From NCBI GenBank assembly GCA_027484835.1, contig JAIXSF010000129.1:1-49381 (forward strand): a stretch of 49,381 nucleotides of DNA, in the 5' to 3' direction. Below are positions 32,336-38,032 of the stretch, piece after piece (within the stretch, counting starts at the first letter, position 1; each line of letters starts with the position of its first letter). This DNA is from Rhizobiaceae bacterium (GTDB lineage: Bacteria; Pseudomonadota; Alphaproteobacteria; Rhizobiales; Rhizobiaceae). The notes beneath the pieces are model-generated. The model searched no databases. It was given only the letters and a program-made list of their open reading frames with translations, and was not told the origin of the DNA. Both the position numbers and the translations under genes were made by a program.

Positions 32336-32717
32336 GTCTTTTCGTCCCTCTAATTGGTCGACTCAAGGCGGCCGGAATTCGGTCCCGCCGATCGTCCCCA
32401 TAAACCATGGCTGACCCTAGCGTAACCCGTCCGCAGATGTCCACGGCAAAGGATTGCGCAAACCTACGTCGATTGCCGGGGGTGAGCCGTGGCGTCTGCG
32501 GCACGCTGTTGTGCAGGACCGACAGTAGAACGGGCGGTTACTTCAGGCACTACATCGGCGGGGCTCGTTCGGCATTTTCTGTGTCTCATTTGTGCATCGC
32601 TGCCTCGCCAAAATTGGGGGATATTTCCGGATGAGTCAGTTGTTATTGCAACCACAAATGGACAAATGGCTGATTTGCAATGGAAATATGCTGTCAAAAC
32701 GGCGTCATTAAACATCA

Positions 32718-32732
32718 TTAATTTTATCTTAA
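32718..32732. promoter_or_regulatory. CtrA-type box TTAA-N7-TTAA
   Basis: TTAA-TTTTATC-TTAA in an AT-rich intergenic region; may be a chance match. Confidence 0.35.
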
Positions 32733-33069
32733 GTAAGTATTGACCTTGGTAACTCGTAGGTGTTTTTATTCCACCGGCCGAATTGGCTGTCTAAATCCAG
32801 TAAAGAACGCAATTATAAAAACATTCTAATATATATAGGGTATCTTGAATGGTCATAGATCGGTCGGTTCGACTCAGCCGGTGAATTAATCCGGAGCAAG
32901 GGCGCGAATAATACAGCGTACCTGGATATATATATCTGCATATGTGTGAGATTCACCAGAATAGTCTGGCGGATTATACAGCTCTGTTGTCTTGTACGAC
33001 CTATTCTCTCTCTGAGGTGGTTGAGTACGGATTGAAATCGGGGCGATAGGTAAAACAGAGGAGAAGACA

Positions 33070-34311
33070 ATGAAAAGTGTAGTCGCAGCTTCAGTATTGG
33101 CGCTGATGGCATCGACCTCGGCGTTTGCAACGGATGTCGATGCCGAGATCAACCAGTTTGCGGTTGGCATCCAGAAGGCTCTGAACGAGATCGAAGACGT
33201 CACGAAGGCAACCGGCGTCACGCAGGAAGCCGTCAACGCAGCGAACCTCGTTTCGAAGCTCGATGTGGGTTACCTCGAGGACATTACCCAGAAGTCGTTC
33301 GTCAAGCAGATCGCCGTGAACAGCATTGAATCGCCGAAGTTCGACAAGGTCGAAGTCACGGGCGCCGCGCAGGACGCGACGAATGTTGCGAACTCGATCA
33401 GCATCGGCAAGGATGACGGTTCGGCGGGCAACGCCGATTACCTCGAGAAGATCAAGCAGGGATCGTTCGGTGATCAGTTCGCCAAGAACACCATCTCGGA
33501 TGTCAAGCTTGCCAAGACAGTCGATCAGGCTGCCGTCAACGCGGCAAACCTCGTGACGCTGTCTGTCGACGCCGGTGACATCGACAAGATCAAGCAGGGA
33601 TCGTTCGGCGAGCAGACCGCCATCAACAAGATTGACAGCGGCTGGACCTGGAAGGGTGCCGTCATCACCGACGTGACCCAGAGCGCGACCAACGTTGCCA
33701 ACTCGATCTCGCTGGGCAAGATCGACACGGGTTCGTTCAACCAGCTGCTCGACAAGGCCAAGCAGACCGCCTTTGTCGACCAGTACGCCTCCAACGACAT
33801 CGAGATCGCCAAGACGGTCGAAGACGTTACTCAGGAAGCCGTCAACGCGACCAACCTCATCACGTCGGATGCGGCAGGTCTCGGCGAAGTCACCCAGACC
33901 GCCTATGGCGATCAGGATGCGCTGAACACCATCAAGTTCAAGAAGTGGATTGATGGCAACGCCGTCGTCGACGGCAAGGTCGTTCCTTCGAGCCAGAGTG
34001 CCACAAACGTCATCAACAGCGTCTCGGCGCCGGTGATCAAGACGACGCTGGCTCAGTTCTCTGCCGTCGACCAGAAGGCCAAGAACGTTGCGGATTCGGT
34101 TGGTTTCGGTTCCCAGATCTGGGACTTCGAACAGACGGCCGTCAATGCGACGAACCTGGTCTCGATCGGCGCGATCGGCAGCGATCTTGAACTCAGCCAG
34201 GTTGCTCTCGTGTCGCAGAGCGCTTCCAACCTGATCGATGCCAACGGCACGGTCGACAAGGTTGTCCAGAGCGCGACCAACGTTGCCAACTCGATCGGCG
34301 ACCTGAACTGA
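33070..34311 (+). CDS. Secreted Gln/Asn-ladder repeat protein, candidate major amyloid/fibre subunit (HfaD/curlin-like analogue)
   Basis: Sec signal (..SAFA), then 8 units of Q-x5-Q-x-A-x-N ... Q-x-A-x-N-x-x-N; no Cys; GAGGAG RBS. The ORF is solid, the function is inferred. Confidence 0.7.
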   Translation: MKSVVAASVLALMASTSAFATDVDAEINQFAVGIQKALNEIEDVTKATGVTQEAVNAANLVSKLDVGYLEDITQKSFVKQIAVNSIESPKFDKVEVTGAAQDATNVANSISIGKDDGSAGNADYLEKIKQGSFGDQFAKNTISDVKLAKTVDQAAVNAANLVTLSVDAGDIDKIKQGSFGEQTAINKIDSGWTWKGAVITDVTQSATNVANSISLGKIDTGSFNQLLDKAKQTAFVDQYASNDIEIAKTVEDVTQEAVNATNLITSDAAGLGEVTQTAYGDQDALNTIKFKKWIDGNAVVDGKVVPSSQSATNVINSVSAPVIKTTLAQFSAVDQKAKNVADSVGFGSQIWDFEQTAVNATNLVSIGAIGSDLELSQVALVSQSASNLIDANGTVDKVVQSATNVANSIGDLN

Positions 34312-34319
34312 TTGGTTCC

Positions 34320-34356
34320 TGGCCAGGCTGCGTTTGTCAGCCTGGCCATTTTCTTT
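34320..34356 (+). terminator. Strong hairpin with U-rich tail between the two repeat genes
   Basis: TGGCCAGGCTG-CGTTTGT-CAGCCTGGCCA-TTTTCTTT, 11-bp perfect stem. Confidence 0.75.
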
Positions 34357-34410
34357 CTACTGCCGAATCTGTGGAGGCCTGGCTCATGAGGAGCCAAGGT
34401 AAGTGTGGTT

Positions 34411-35475
34411 ATGTCCCGGAGTTCTCGAGTTGTCTTGGCCGTGACTTGCACGGCCCTGGTTGCCTGGCCCGGTCTTCCGTTTGCCGAGCCGATCGAGTTG
34501 ATCCCGTCGCAGGACGTGCTTGACTCGGCGCAGGTGGTCCAGATCTACAAGGGTCGACAGGATGCCCGCCAGTCTCTGGGGTGGAGCAATGTGTCGGTTG
34601 CGAAGTCGGCCCGCCAGAGCGCCAGCAACGCCGGCAACATCATCGATGTCCGCGATCGTCCGCTTGACAGTGTCCGTCAGGACTTCGAGGGGCAGCAATA
34701 TTCGGTCAACAGCATCATCCTGAATGCCGTCTCGGCGCTGGAAACGATCGAGCAGGAAGCGTCGAACACGGGCAATGCCGTTGTGGGTGGCGACATCGGC
34801 AATGTCGAACAGTATTTCGCCGACGGTTCGGTGCAGCACGCCAAGAACCGGCTGACCTTGCCGGATCTTCCCGGCACACTTCGCCAGTCCGGCACCAACA
34901 CCATGAACCTCGTCTATTCCGAGCAGTCGGTGGCGCTGAGCTCGCAGAACTTCACCAAACAGGCCGAGCAGATCGTCGACAACCGGCTCTTCGTCACGGG
35001 GGCGGGCGGGGGCGGCGCGATCGTTCAGGACGGCACCAATCTCGGCAACATCATCGTGGCGCGGGACGTGGATGAGGTCATCCGCGATTTCTCCGGAGAC
35101 CAGATCGTCAACAATGTCGTGACGCTGAAGGATGGCGCGCGCTGGGGGTCGATCAGCCAGAACGGCACGAACATCGCCAATTACATCGAGGCGGAGAATA
35201 TCGGCTATCTGAAGCAGACCTCAAGCAATGGTCGCCAGATCGTCAACAATCGCGTCGAGGTCGAGACCCTTGCTGGCGTGACCCCGATCACGTCGCCGAA
35301 CATCACCCAGAACTCGAACAATTTCGTCAACATGATCGTCCTGAAAAAGACGGCCGAAGATGGCTCATCCCAGGTTGTGGACGTCCTGCAGCAGGCGGAG
35401 TACGGCCAGTCTGTCCAGGGCGTCAATGCAGGCACCGTTTCCCAGACGGGGAACGCCGTCTCGATCGAGCGCTGA
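34411..35475 (+). CDS. Secreted paralogous repeat protein, candidate minor/nucleator subunit
   Basis: Signal peptide; six Q-x-(A/G/S)-x-N-x-x-N motifs alternating with Q...Q-x3-N strands; start may be GTG 34405. Confidence 0.65.
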   Translation: MSRSSRVVLAVTCTALVAWPGLPFAEPIELIPSQDVLDSAQVVQIYKGRQDARQSLGWSNVSVAKSARQSASNAGNIIDVRDRPLDSVRQDFEGQQYSVNSIILNAVSALETIEQEASNTGNAVVGGDIGNVEQYFADGSVQHAKNRLTLPDLPGTLRQSGTNTMNLVYSEQSVALSSQNFTKQAEQIVDNRLFVTGAGGGGAIVQDGTNLGNIIVARDVDEVIRDFSGDQIVNNVVTLKDGARWGSISQNGTNIANYIEAENIGYLKQTSSNGRQIVNNRVEVETLAGVTPITSPNITQNSNNFVNMIVLKKTAEDGSSQVVDVLQQAEYGQSVQGVNAGTVSQTGNAVSIER

Positions 35476-35525
35476 AGGCTCTTTTCCGGGCCTGGTTCGC
35501 CGGCTGCGCGCTCCGTTCCCGGGTC

Positions 35526-35942
35526 TCAATAATCCGCGCAGGCCGGATCCTGGCACCACTGCGGGAAGTCGATCCAGGGCGCGTCCGGCCATTCCGCCGG
35601 CTTGTCTTCCATGTAAAGTGCAGCAGCGCTAATGTAGTTGTTTTGCGCTTTTACAAGTTTCGTCGAGCAAATGTAAGCTGCGTGCTGCTTGATCAACTTG
35701 CCGATGCTGTCGCGTGTCCGCTCGTCAACGGTGTTGGGTGCGGGCTGCTTCAACGCGGCAAAATACGCGTCGATACCCGCCATCACTGTCAGCGGAGAGC
35801 CGCGAACATAGGGCTCACAGGTCGCGCCGGTGCGTTTCAACTCGACCATGGCGCGGACGAAATTCTCAACGGTCTTGGTCTCCGCAGTGGCCGGCCATGC
35901 GATCAGCCCTGCCGCAAATGTCATAAATATAAATTTCCGCAT
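35526..35942 (-). CDS. Small secreted hypothetical protein with four Cys
   Basis: Signal peptide (..PATA), helical body, C-terminal WPDAPWIDFPQWCQDPAC. Confidence 0.65.
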   Translation of the reverse strand: MRKFIFMTFAAGLIAWPATAETKTVENFVRAMVELKRTGATCEPYVRGSPLTVMAGIDAYFAALKQPAPNTVDERTRDSIGKLIKQHAAYICSTKLVKAQNNYISAAALYMEDKPAEWPDAPWIDFPQWCQDPACADY

Positions 35943-36188
35943 AGGAATCCCCTATACATTCCTTTGTGATTTTTCGATTCCTGCGTCATCCGTTCTGTAT
36001 TGTCCAGTACCGCGATTCTGCAGTTCGTTGTTGTTTTTAAGTGTTGTCTTTTGGCAACGAAGACGCGGTGTGTTCTGCGTTGATTTGGTTTTCCAGTAAA
36101 TTGCCGCTGTTTCTCGCGGGCTTTAATGCTATCCCATCGGCCGATTATATGTAGACGAGATGGATAAGCTTAAATTTTGGGAGGTTAT

Positions 36189-36527
36189 ATGATCATCTCT
36201 AGATATTTGAAACCTCTGTTGATGCTGGTTGTGGCAGCGCCCACGGCTGCTTTTGCCAACGGTCTGGGTGAAGACAGACCCTATCAGTTTCGCACTGCAA
36301 ACGAACGTCAGGTATTGCTGAACCTCGAGCGCACCCGTCTTGAATTGCAGGGCAAGTTTCCCGCGACAGGCGTAGGATCTTCCTCAGGTTTGGGTACCCA
36401 ACAGACCGGTAACATTACAACCATAACTATTAATGGCTCTGGAAATACTGTGACGACGAGCCAGACAAATTCGGGTGCGCAGACCATTACGCAGACCGAT
36501 AGCAATAATTCGATTTTGAACAACTGA
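36189..36527 (+). CDS. Small secreted HfaA/curlin-like protein
   Basis: Signal peptide; Gly/Ser linker, then QQTGNITTITINGSGNTVTTSQTNSG beta-arch; GGAGG RBS; 10 nt upstream of the CsgG/HfaB-like gene. Confidence 0.6.
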   Translation: MIISRYLKPLLMLVVAAPTAAFANGLGEDRPYQFRTANERQVLLNLERTRLELQGKFPATGVGSSSGLGTQQTGNITTITINGSGNTVTTSQTNSGAQTITQTDSNNSILNN

Positions 36528-36537
36528 GGCCTGTGGG

Positions 36538-37416
36538 ATGACGTTTCGTAAATTCCGCGGTCTCCTGCTTGCTCCCGTGTTGCTCCTCGCCGCCTGCCAG
36601 TCTCAGACGGCAGAGAAGGCGCCGAAGGAACCGTTCCTGGGGCCTGTTCCGATCGCGACGCGCACACCGGTTGATGCCGCTCTCGAATGCCTCAGCAAGA
36701 CCCCCGAAGTTCAGCGCTACCCGCGCATGTTCGCCGTGCATGTGATCACGGATCAGACCGGACGCTATTCCTCCGAGGAAAGCGGCAACTACCTGCCGCG
36801 TGACAGTGCCGGCATGATGGTCTCCCTGTTGCAGAAGGCGGGCGTCAAGCAGGTCAACCGGTCGAACACCGCTGTGACCGAGTGGGAAATCGCCCGCGCC
36901 CGCGAGCAGATCCTCGGCGATGGCGGCAATGTCGTCGTCGGCGACGAGAGCCTGCCGTTCCGCCCGCTGGTCAAGGGGGCGCTGCGTGGTTCCGATTACG
37001 TGGTCGACGGAGTGATCACCCAGCTCGATTTCAACACCTATTCCGGTGGGCTCGAAGCAAGCGTAGGTGGGGCTGGTGCCGGTGCCCGACGGTTTGCCGT
37101 GACGGCAGCGATCGATATCCGGGTGACCGACACCAAGACGACCCGCATCGTCAAGGCCAAGTCCTATTCCAAGCAGGCGGTTGGCCGCGAAGTCTTCGCA
37201 TCGGTCTTCCGCTTCTTCTCCGACGAGCTGTTCGACATCAAGATCGGCAGCAAGTCGCAGGAAGGCCTGCAGGCTGCCGTGCGTTGGGTCCTGGCAGATG
37301 CCACCTATGACCTGGTCAAGGAGTTGAGCGGCCACAAGGGCGCCTGCGACGTCTACCTGCCGAAGGCATCGCAGGATGACAGGTTGGCGCCCGCCGAGGT
37401 CGCCTCGGCCAACTGA
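36538..37416 (+). CDS. CsgG/HfaB-family outer-membrane lipoprotein secretion channel
   Basis: Lipobox LAAC; T....AL.CL, AV..I.D.TG, V.R.....E, SDY...G.IT.LD.N..SGG, D.R..DT.T..IV...SY.KQ..G.EV, QE..Q.AVR. Confidence 0.85.
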   Translation: MTFRKFRGLLLAPVLLLAACQSQTAEKAPKEPFLGPVPIATRTPVDAALECLSKTPEVQRYPRMFAVHVITDQTGRYSSEESGNYLPRDSAGMMVSLLQKAGVKQVNRSNTAVTEWEIARAREQILGDGGNVVVGDESLPFRPLVKGALRGSDYVVDGVITQLDFNTYSGGLEASVGGAGAGARRFAVTAAIDIRVTDTKTTRIVKAKSYSKQAVGREVFASVFRFFSDELFDIKIGSKSQEGLQAAVRWVLADATYDLVKELSGHKGACDVYLPKASQDDRLAPAEVASAN

Positions 37417-37531: not shown

Positions 37532-38032
37532 TTACTTTTCCACGCCCAGCACTTCCGCACAACGCGACAGGCTGAAGCCGTTTCCGGTCGTGTCGTTGCT
37601 GGCGCGGATGCTGGCGATAATGCCGCCGCGGTCGGTATTGATCTGCAATTCGCAAAACAACTGCTCATAGCGGCCTGGCGTGATCAGTTCCGGCTCCCAG
37701 AAGGGGTCGCGGGTGATAACGCGGGTCTGCGTGACCGTCTGGCCCGATCCGTCCTGGCTGGTTTCGGTGCGGATGATCGTGCGCGCCGGCTCAGGCCGGG
37801 TATAGACAGGCGGAATATAGCGGGTCTTGTCGCCGCCGCGCCAGGTGTAGATCTTGCCCGAGGACAGCGGGTATTCGTCGATCGGCGGGCCGTAGGCCGC
37901 AAAGAAACGTTCGACAGGCTGACCGATCCAGCGGGACTGCAGCGCCCTGTTGGCGTCTTCGGTCGTGGTGCATCCTGCAAGGATCGCAAGCGGGAGGATG
38001 AGCAGGGCGATCAGGGGGCGAAAGTGGCGCAT
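37532..38032 (-). CDS. Hypothetical lipoprotein
   Basis: Lipobox LAGC, WIGQ....FFA.YGPP, C-terminal Cys pair. Confidence 0.75.
   Translation of the reverse strand: MRHFRPLIALLILPLAILAGCTTTEDANRALQSRWIGQPVERFFAAYGPPIDEYPLSSGKIYTWRGGDKTRYIPPVYTRPEPARTIIRTETSQDGSGQTVTQTRVITRDPFWEPELITPGRYEQLFCELQINTDRGGIIASIRASNDTTGNGFSLSRCAEVLGVEK

Follow-up and report, generated by a model that had tools for sequence, protein, structure and literature searches.

A 49,381-nucleotide (nt) stretch of DNA (contig JAIXSF010000129.1 of a Rhizobiaceae bacterium, whose genome is 84% complete; the whole stretch is hereafter referred to as the window) contains five genes at positions 33070..37416 that probably encode a curli-like fibre system branching as sister to the holdfast anchor (Hfa), in which two repeat proteins likely stack head-to-tail. 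These genes are designated R1 and R2 (repeat proteins), C4 (a small four-cysteine protein), A (a small secreted protein), and B (a CsgG-family lipoprotein). An earlier note, made from the letters of the sequence, had placed five genes here and described two Gln/Asn-ladder paralogs, a 4-Cys small protein, a small beta-arch protein, and a lipoprotein with CsgG/HfaB motifs, all in a locus with AT-rich regulatory DNA; all five open reading frames (ORFs) were recovered at the coordinates it gave, and each of these descriptions was borne out by the comparisons reported below.

The five genes form a real and conserved cassette in scattered aquatic alphaproteobacteria, namely Allorhizobium-type rhizobia, Devosiaceae, and Roseobacteraceae. 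Judging by how its homologues are named, the host itself belongs with Allorhizobium/Peteryoungia-type rhizobia. By scanning GTDB genomes with B, 28 loci were identified (10 from Rhizobiaceae, 9 from Devosiaceae, and 9 from Roseobacteraceae), all of which contain C4 and have the A gene immediately 5' of B; R1 and R2 are present in 26 of them, and the two misses (L032 and L033) stop at contig edges. Four gene orders were observed: R1-R2, reversed C4, and A-B in rhizobia, R1-R2-C4-A-B in Pelagibacterium, C4-A-B facing R1-R2 in Devosia, and A-B-C4 facing R1-R2 in roseobacters. A-B and R1-R2 each stay adjacent across all four orders, and the linkage of the cassette holds through these rearrangements at approximately 30% R1 identity. 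A search with R1 matched 14 of 80 genomes of the genus and added seven genus genomes, in all of which the five genes occur together, as they also do in G739; in G684 they are split over two contig ends. Among the 36 genus genomes searched with both B and R1, both genes were found in 6 and neither in 30. These counts should be read with the consideration that kin genomes are not independent and that the genus genomes overlap the 28 loci. The repeat genes therefore do co-occur with the pore gene across genomes, a point that the earlier note had proposed to examine by a neighborhood survey. Because C4 is encoded on the minus strand of the window and the other four genes on the plus strand, the five genes are not a single operon in this genome (Table 1).

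Table 1. Features of the five-gene cassette and of one cluster on another contig of the same genome (positions refer to the window unless a contig is named)
Feature	Position	Strand	Description
R1	33070-34311	+	413 aa secreted protein with eight ~50-aa repeat rungs; candidate major fibre subunit
R2	34405/34411-35475	+	356/354 aa paralogous repeat protein; candidate minor/nucleator subunit
C4	35526-35942	-	138 aa, secreted 4-Cys all-alpha protein; putative accessory (chaperone-like) factor
A	36189-36527	+	112 aa small secreted protein; putative pore-to-fibre adaptor
B	36538-37416	+	292 aa CsgG-family lipoprotein; probable outer-membrane secretion pore
CtrA-type box TTAA-N7-TTAA	32718..32732	.	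352 nt 5' of R1
AT-rich regulatory DNA with a putative long R1 5' leader	32560..33069	+	GC 0.42
Terminator-like hairpin between R1 and R2	34320..34348	+	11-pair stem and T run
upp-like polysaccharide cluster	G000:C373:3881-12286 (L152)		exact CtrA-type box 5' of first gene

Each of the eight tandem rungs of R1 contains two strand motifs, 'a' (Q-x5-Q-x-A-x-N-x-I) and 'b' (Q-x-A-x-N-x2-N-x-[VIAL]). Q-x3-N-x2-N occurs 8 times in R1 (shuffle mean 0.16, maximum 3 in 5000 shuffles) and Q-x5-Q-x3-N 9 times (shuffle mean 0.12, maximum 2), and R2, which has the same layout, has 6 copies of Q-x3-N-x2-N (shuffle mean 0.24, maximum 4); an hhalign probability of 99.6% between R1 and R2 indicates that they are paralogues. 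The curlin and Fap consensus patterns (the latter as given in the earlier note) gave no match in any of the five proteins, in agreement with the view of that note that the repeats fit neither. None of 109 R1 homologues has a Pfam domain on record, and B alone among the five proteins has a Pfam family match above cut-off. By sequence comparison, R1/R2 and C4 are new families, the former being unnamed. The two paralogues differ in how their lengths vary: R1 ranges from 225 to 765 amino acids (aa) with 4-16 'b' motifs (coefficient of variation (CV) 0.29 in 24 loci, omitting the frameshifted L027 and the mis-started L046), whereas R2 is near-fixed at 313-393 aa (CV 0.05 in 26 loci). A similar contrast between variable CsgA and fixed CsgB is reported in PMC3521004. 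The C-terminal motif Q[TSVI][GA]N-x5-R is present in R2 in all 26 loci, and its Q[TSVI][GA]N part is common to the last strand of R2 (26/26) and the arch of A (28/28); Q[TSVI]GN occurs in none of 26 R1 copies. In the Rhizobium rosettiformans W3 record (L027:6509-7770), R1 is frameshifted with 4 rungs in each of two frames, reflecting either a pseudogene or an assembly error, which bears on the choice of a test strain.

B scored 57.2 bits on the Pfam CsgG model (PF03783, cut-off 20.8), matched solved Escherichia coli CsgG structures (E 8e-9), has a lipobox with an invariant Cys20, and is the only CsgG-family gene found in the genome. On NCBIfam models it reached 162.6 bits for HfaB (NF037935), which is below the cut-off of 300 (139-170 bits for B homologues), and 35.8 bits for curli CsgG (cut-off 505). 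A search for HfaB in 401 alphaproteobacterial genomes matched 32 of them, 14 over the cut-off. In a quick maximum likelihood tree of 62 pores, which carries a long-branch warning, cassette pores form one clade (18 rows; support by the Shimodaira-Hasegawa-like approximate likelihood ratio test (SH-aLRT) 99), above-cut-off HfaB pores another (14 rows, 99), and a third pore type one more (4 rows, 100); the three join at SH-aLRT 100 in no resolved order, and six curli CsgG sequences lie on a long branch distant from B. B is thus placed in a separate clade, with HfaB as its neighbor and curli CsgG at a distance. It likely assembles an outer-membrane pore. A predicted complex of three B chains (21-276) with A (24-112) scored 0.00 with an uncertain partner fold, which is evidence neither way.

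The A protein, whose start ATG was picked from homologues and whose gene has a low third-position GC (0.53 vs 0.70-0.89 in neighboring genes), has an N-terminal motif NGxGExRx[WY]QFR and a C-terminal HfaA-type beta-arch. Its profile matches true HfaA over the C-terminal 33-34 columns (hhalign 96%; 8% for the controls HfaA-R1 and A-R2) and, in 7 of 14 true hfaB loci, selects the ORF that immediately precedes the pore gene (E 1e-5 to 0.05 among 2379 ORFs); the NCBIfam HfaA model (NF037934) is above cut-off for 7 of 8 scanned ORFs upstream of true hfaB. A itself does not match this model and one of 57 scanned A homologues matches it weakly. The N-terminal half is unlike that of HfaA and marks a broader family, with 73 homologues (E<=0.001) in a set of representatives at 50% identity. 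Homology between A and CsgF, which was suggested by the resemblance of the YQFR motif, was rejected since it was undetected by hhalign, Pfam, and PDB sequence search. Because profile similarity to CsgF is absent, the adaptor role considered for A rests on its position, size, and match to HfaA.

The cassette resembles Hfa in part: HfaB is the nearest named family of B and shares one well-supported tree group with it, a small gene directly 5' of the pore encodes the same C-terminal beta-arch as HfaA, and the partners are secreted, low-complexity, and beta-rich. In contrast, B falls under the HfaB cut-off, A has another motif in place of the N-terminal STRDANGNR block of HfaA, two paralogues occur where Hfa has one HfaD, an extra helical protein (C4) is present, and no polysaccharide locus is linked to the cassette. 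R1 and R2 each gave an hhalign probability of 0.5% against an alignment of 7 HfaD sequences and no match to the HfaD model NF037936; the 84%-complete genome yielded no match to the HfaA or HfaD models (control genomes were positive) and, in a search limited to motifs, no ORF when two of the three published C-terminal motifs of HfaE were sought (<=1 mismatch). A six-gene cluster on another contig of this genome encodes GNAT, Wzz/Wzc, Wza, GT4, sugar transferase, and Wzy-type domains, and we take it to be uppA-F from its gene order and the description in 10.1101/085225.

In Hfa, HfaB is required for surface localization of SDS (sodium dodecyl sulfate)-resistant HfaA/HfaD polymers (10.1101/2022.07.20.500906, PMC6707917). 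It might be supposed that B, A, and R1/R2 correspond to HfaB, HfaA, and HfaD in a divergent Hfa-like complex that tethers a polar polysaccharide (unipolar polysaccharide (UPP) or its roseobacter equivalent) through a short SDS-resistant polymer. We consider this unlikely. The grouping of B with HfaB (SH-aLRT 100 for HfaB, the cassette clade, and the third clade together), the arch and gene position of A, and the upp-like cluster with its own CtrA-type box would all suit such a complex, as would one genome (G330, see below) with an A-B-R arrangement whose repeat gene occupies the hfaD slot and the ESM Atlas listing for R1, in which an HfaD cluster ranks fifth (score 0.81, below the 0.9 lead level). 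However, R1 and R2 show no profile relationship with HfaD, no HfaA, HfaD, or HfaE candidates emerged from the genome searches above, and the length pattern of a major and a minor subunit suits a polymer. The upp-like glycosyltransferase is present in 78 of 80 genus genomes and the cassette in 14 of 80, implying that the upp-like locus does not depend on the cassette as its anchor, and a polysaccharide gene is conserved as a neighbor in none of 29 loci. The study 10.1101/085225 describes most Rhizobiales as lacking hfa homologues and roseobacters as lacking upp and hfs/hfa, yet some roseobacters carry the cassette. The earlier note had weighed two readings, one a distinct class and the other a remote anchor of the Hfa kind, and the data lie between them: B and A are Hfa-related, R1/R2 and C4 are new families, and the comparisons revealed no link to polysaccharide genes.

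Fap systems have long Q/N repeats and a major/minor paralogue pair, and the cassette shares both features with them. It differs in that its proteins have no Fap consensus and its exporter is of the CsgG type instead of the FapF barrel; neither a FapF barrel nor a FapD peptidase was found among the conserved neighbors of 29 loci (flanks <=10 kb), and the five proteins have no Pfam match to either. Likeness to curli is broader, including a CsgG-family lipoprotein pore, a pair of paralogous Q/N repeat subunits of which one varies in length and the other does not, and a predicted uncapped beta-solenoid subunit with a strand-arc-strand repeat and two related motifs. On the other hand, B is far from curli CsgG, and the cassette rung of ~50 aa is about twice the curlin repeat of 23 +/- 5 residues (PMC10192328). 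Curlin (X6QXGX2NX10; PF07012) and CsgF (PF10614) had no matches in the 84%-complete genome, control genomes being positive, and the five cassette proteins match no CsgE, CsgC, or CsgH family in Pfam, a comparison that covered these proteins. Plain orthology of R1/R2 with HfaD or CsgA, an outcome that the earlier note had named as contrary to its reading, is not seen. Two of four cassette genomes tested (G878 and G880, both Devosiaceae) also carry true curlin-repeat proteins elsewhere, so the cassette and curli can coexist. The cassette would work like curli and is related to Hfa, but it lacks features that define each of the two.

Structure prediction for R1 by AlphaFold2 (alignment of 70 sequences) gave a best model with a predicted local distance difference test score (pLDDT) of 88.0 and a predicted template modeling score (pTM) of 0.87, which is all-beta past the signal peptide. 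In a wide VIA structure search with this model, beta-solenoids were on top, tied within 1 Z: Pontibacter CsgA 8c50 (Z 15.0, root-mean-square deviation (rmsd) 9.3 Å, 196 aligned), SufD 1vh4 (Z 14.8, rmsd 4.2, 239 aligned), EtpA 8cpk (Z 14.6, rmsd 2.9, 198 aligned), and 5awf (Z 14.0, rmsd 3.8, 228 aligned); HMW1 aligned at an rmsd of 3.2 Å. FapC is not among the fold matches listed. Because solenoids hold the top ranks in a tie and Foldseek returned nothing at E<=0.001, R1 is predicted to belong to the beta-solenoid class without a close solved relative, which agrees with the solenoid that the earlier note had expected. The first rung begins at residue 29 in the window copy and no more than ~10 residues past the signal peptide in this and most rhizobial and roseobacter R1 copies, and the chain ends 5-11 residues past the last 'b' motif in 25 of 26 copies, the exception being frameshifted. 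Since rungs begin near the signal peptide and the chain stops so soon after the last rung, R1 is predicted to be an uncapped, open-ended beta-solenoid, a feature that has been linked to polymerization (PMC10192328). Soluble capped monomers had been named in the earlier note as the contrary outcome, and no capping domains were seen in R1/R2 from the R1 model and the layout of terminal sequences.

A different use of the same fold would be the export of R1/R2 as monomeric or short-oligomer solenoid rods, i.e., adhesins or a coat binding glycans, minerals, or algal surfaces by their flat faces, with repeat number tuning length and C4 or A capping the ends. Structural matches with the best rmsd (EtpA and HMW1) are indeed non-fibre secreted solenoids, some R1 copies have N-terminal extensions, and C4, which could be a cap, is missing where a single repeat gene is present (G330). 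Nevertheless, we find such rods quite improbable: a terminal cap sequence is missing from most R1 copies, function-tested CsgG-type pores are reported to export polymerizing subunits (10.1101/2022.07.20.500906, PMC7304575), and the inward Q/N ladder, a geometry deduced from repeat periodicity, is of the curli kind. It is very improbable that the five genes are linked for some other reason, such as a co-transferred island whose R1/R2 are periplasmic or exported by another route. Patchy spread (14 of 80 genus genomes, 3 of 401 at the order level including the genome studied here, and 3 of 301 in the roseobacter family) suggests transfer and loss, and most gene orders place R1-R2 and A-B in distinct transcription units. 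Nevertheless, the genes remain linked through four rearrangements at ~30% R1 identity, and an all-vs-all comparison of 29 loci (flanks <=10 kb) found no other conserved partners than antisense ORFs and, in 15/29, a generic family of amino-acid ABC permeases. Two genomes from the roseobacter search (G885 and G956) are possibly within the 28 loci and were not treated as independent.

In 500-nt bins, GC content is lowest in two regions, one 5' of R1 (0.41-0.44) and the other surrounding the C4-A spacer (0.47-0.49), compared with 0.61 for the window overall; the 246-nt spacer alone has a GC of 0.435. The TTAA-N7-TTAA box upstream of R1 is the sole exact match in the window (0.05 expected) and corresponds to the CtrA consensus (PMC7200025). 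Across the genome, 37 TTAA pairs occur at spacer 7 vs 1-10 at five other spacers, and other exact boxes adjoin genes identified by eye as flagellins. An exact box was found in 15 of 27 homologous R1 upstream regions (7/10 rhizobial, 4/7 Devosiaceae, and 3/9 roseobacter loci, plus G330; the R1 start of L046 was moved by hand for this count) vs 0-2 of 27 at six other spacer lengths. These data suggest that CtrA may bind at 32718-32732. The possibility that the box serves the divergent hupE was ruled out, as the box is kept where hupE is not adjacent (L036, L047, and Devosia and roseobacter loci). In true hfaA upstream regions, an exact CtrA-type box was found in 0 of 11 and a box with one mismatch in 3 of 11. 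The R1 leader has conserved blocks in 9 aligned rhizobial loci; within it, some 70-90 nt directly 5' of the R1 ribosome-binding site (32980-33069) are strongly conserved among close rhizobia without covariation and are possibly a binding site for a protein or small RNA. A structured RNA in this leader was considered and rejected, with no Rfam match, two-sided change in 1 of 26 predicted pairs, and unconvincing covariation, and a sigma-70 promoter scan was uninformative. The intergenic R1-R2 hairpin could reduce the output of R2 compared with R1; it is a lead only, such sites being not above chance in the region. Contigs from sequencing runs cover R1 in 4 of 4 runs (3 recorded as RNA; 2 studies) and parts of R2 in 3 of 4, which is a weak hint, as the runs were chosen for containing part of the region and their contigs neither prove transcription nor rank genes; C4, A, and most flanking bins are uncovered and B has one short contig in one run, this lack of cover not being used.

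C4 has four Cys residues that are invariant in 23 of 23 aligned homologues, and it is predicted to be all-helical (AlphaFold2 pLDDT 86). Its 53 homologues are all at E<1e-34 without a weaker tail, and it belongs to no known family. Assignment of its fold was abandoned since only generic four-helix or ferritin-like rows were obtained, with a best Z of 8.9, below the meaningful level for helical bundles. We infer that C4 is an accessory, chaperone-like factor. Adjacent to the cassette, a putative unannotated lipoprotein gene (37532-38032, minus strand) is convergent with B; it is adjacent in 9 of 10 rhizobial loci and in no Devosiaceae or roseobacter locus, and is probably not part of the system.

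Based on these observations, we propose an order in which B would be the pore, A the adaptor, R2 the nucleator, R1 the major subunit, and C4 the accessory factor. R1, R2, A, and C4 would enter the periplasm via Sec (signal peptides were assigned by inspection, with the low-confidence N-terminus of the R1 model as a further guide), and B would export R1 and R2 across the outer membrane. A may dock at the pore and display its HfaA-type beta-arch outside, as CsgF does in curli, where the CsgF N-terminus docks in CsgG and recruits CsgB, which nucleates CsgA (PMC7304575). R2, with its fixed length, could bind A through its conserved last strand and nucleate, and R1, with its variable length, could then polymerize on R2, C4 acting as a periplasmic or surface accessory for the pair. 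CtrA probably couples R1 expression to the cell cycle or to a switch from motile to attached cells. The motif common to the R2 last strand and the A arch, as well as the R1-R2 hairpin, fit this order and do not show it.

Several observations weigh against such a curli-like fibre. The Q+N content of R1 is modest (0.136), the remaining four of its five AlphaFold2 models have pLDDT values of 55-70, Foldseek found no match to the confident model at E<=0.001, and the CsgA 8c50 alignment has a poor rmsd and is tied with the non-fibre solenoids SufD and EtpA. N-terminal extensions of 20-45 residues, often Pro/Gly-rich or with Cys-x-x-Cys, are present in Devosiaceae R1 and three rhizobial copies (including L025 and L026) and are a possible cap. 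A gave an hhalign probability of 1% against 4 alphaproteobacterial CsgF sequences, and the box is exact in just three of nine roseobacter loci. Finally, G330 has A-B and one repeat gene, and orthologues of C4 and R2 were not found there, suggesting that a separate nucleator is not always encoded.

Other HfaB-like loci were observed in the course of this analysis. The minimal A-B-R locus of G330 (L106:6603-9324) has its repeat gene where hfaD would lie and is preceded, at a distance of 87 nt, by an exact CtrA-type box; its pore is a basal branch of the cassette pore clade, and the same genome has an operon of a second HfaB-like type (L097-L111, L017, and L018; e.g., L108 in G446). This type encodes a pore, a secreted protein of 230-390 aa termed D-prime, and a small Q/N-rich protein. 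D-prime starts with AFD-x2-W-x-W, ends with ATAVGN, and gave an hhalign probability of 43% to HfaD; R1 gave 4.5% against this family. The operon is often multi-copy (5 pore matches in G446), its scanned partners have no NCBIfam match, and it appears to be undescribed. A third type (L093-L096) combines an A-like protein (NG[FYL]xExPWQFxT) with an HfaB-like pore of its own clade and, in 3 of 4 loci, a secreted beta-rich protein of ~1,700 aa nearby. Above-cut-off HfaB pores were also found without recognizable hfaA or hfaD alongside (L088, L090, and L091) or without hfaD (L085 and L092).

To our knowledge, few functional amyloid systems have a pore of their own (curli, Fap, and probably Hfa), and hfa genes, as far as we know, have been described as essentially confined to Caulobacterales. 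No paper on the cassette was found in a literature search in which subscription journals were thinly covered. The cassette may, although we put this at somewhat less than an even chance, represent a further functional-amyloid class that is CtrA-controlled and polysaccharide-independent, with ~50-residue rungs and its own nucleator, adaptor, and helical chaperone, and that is one of at least four cargo modules on HfaB-type pores of alphaproteobacteria. In that case, the Caulobacter holdfast anchor would be a specialized branch within a broader family of type VIII-like fibres, and HfaA would be an adaptor analogous to CsgF. A self-contained sister system, carried according to titled records by culturable strains (including Rhizobium rosettiformans W3, Peteryoungia ipomoeae, Devosia psychrophila, and Loktanella salsilacus), would contribute a new CsgG-type pore as well as a new repeat architecture of use in amyloid and materials research. 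Such a system could also serve as a simpler model of HfaA/HfaB/HfaD assembly and of further exports through HfaB-type pores.

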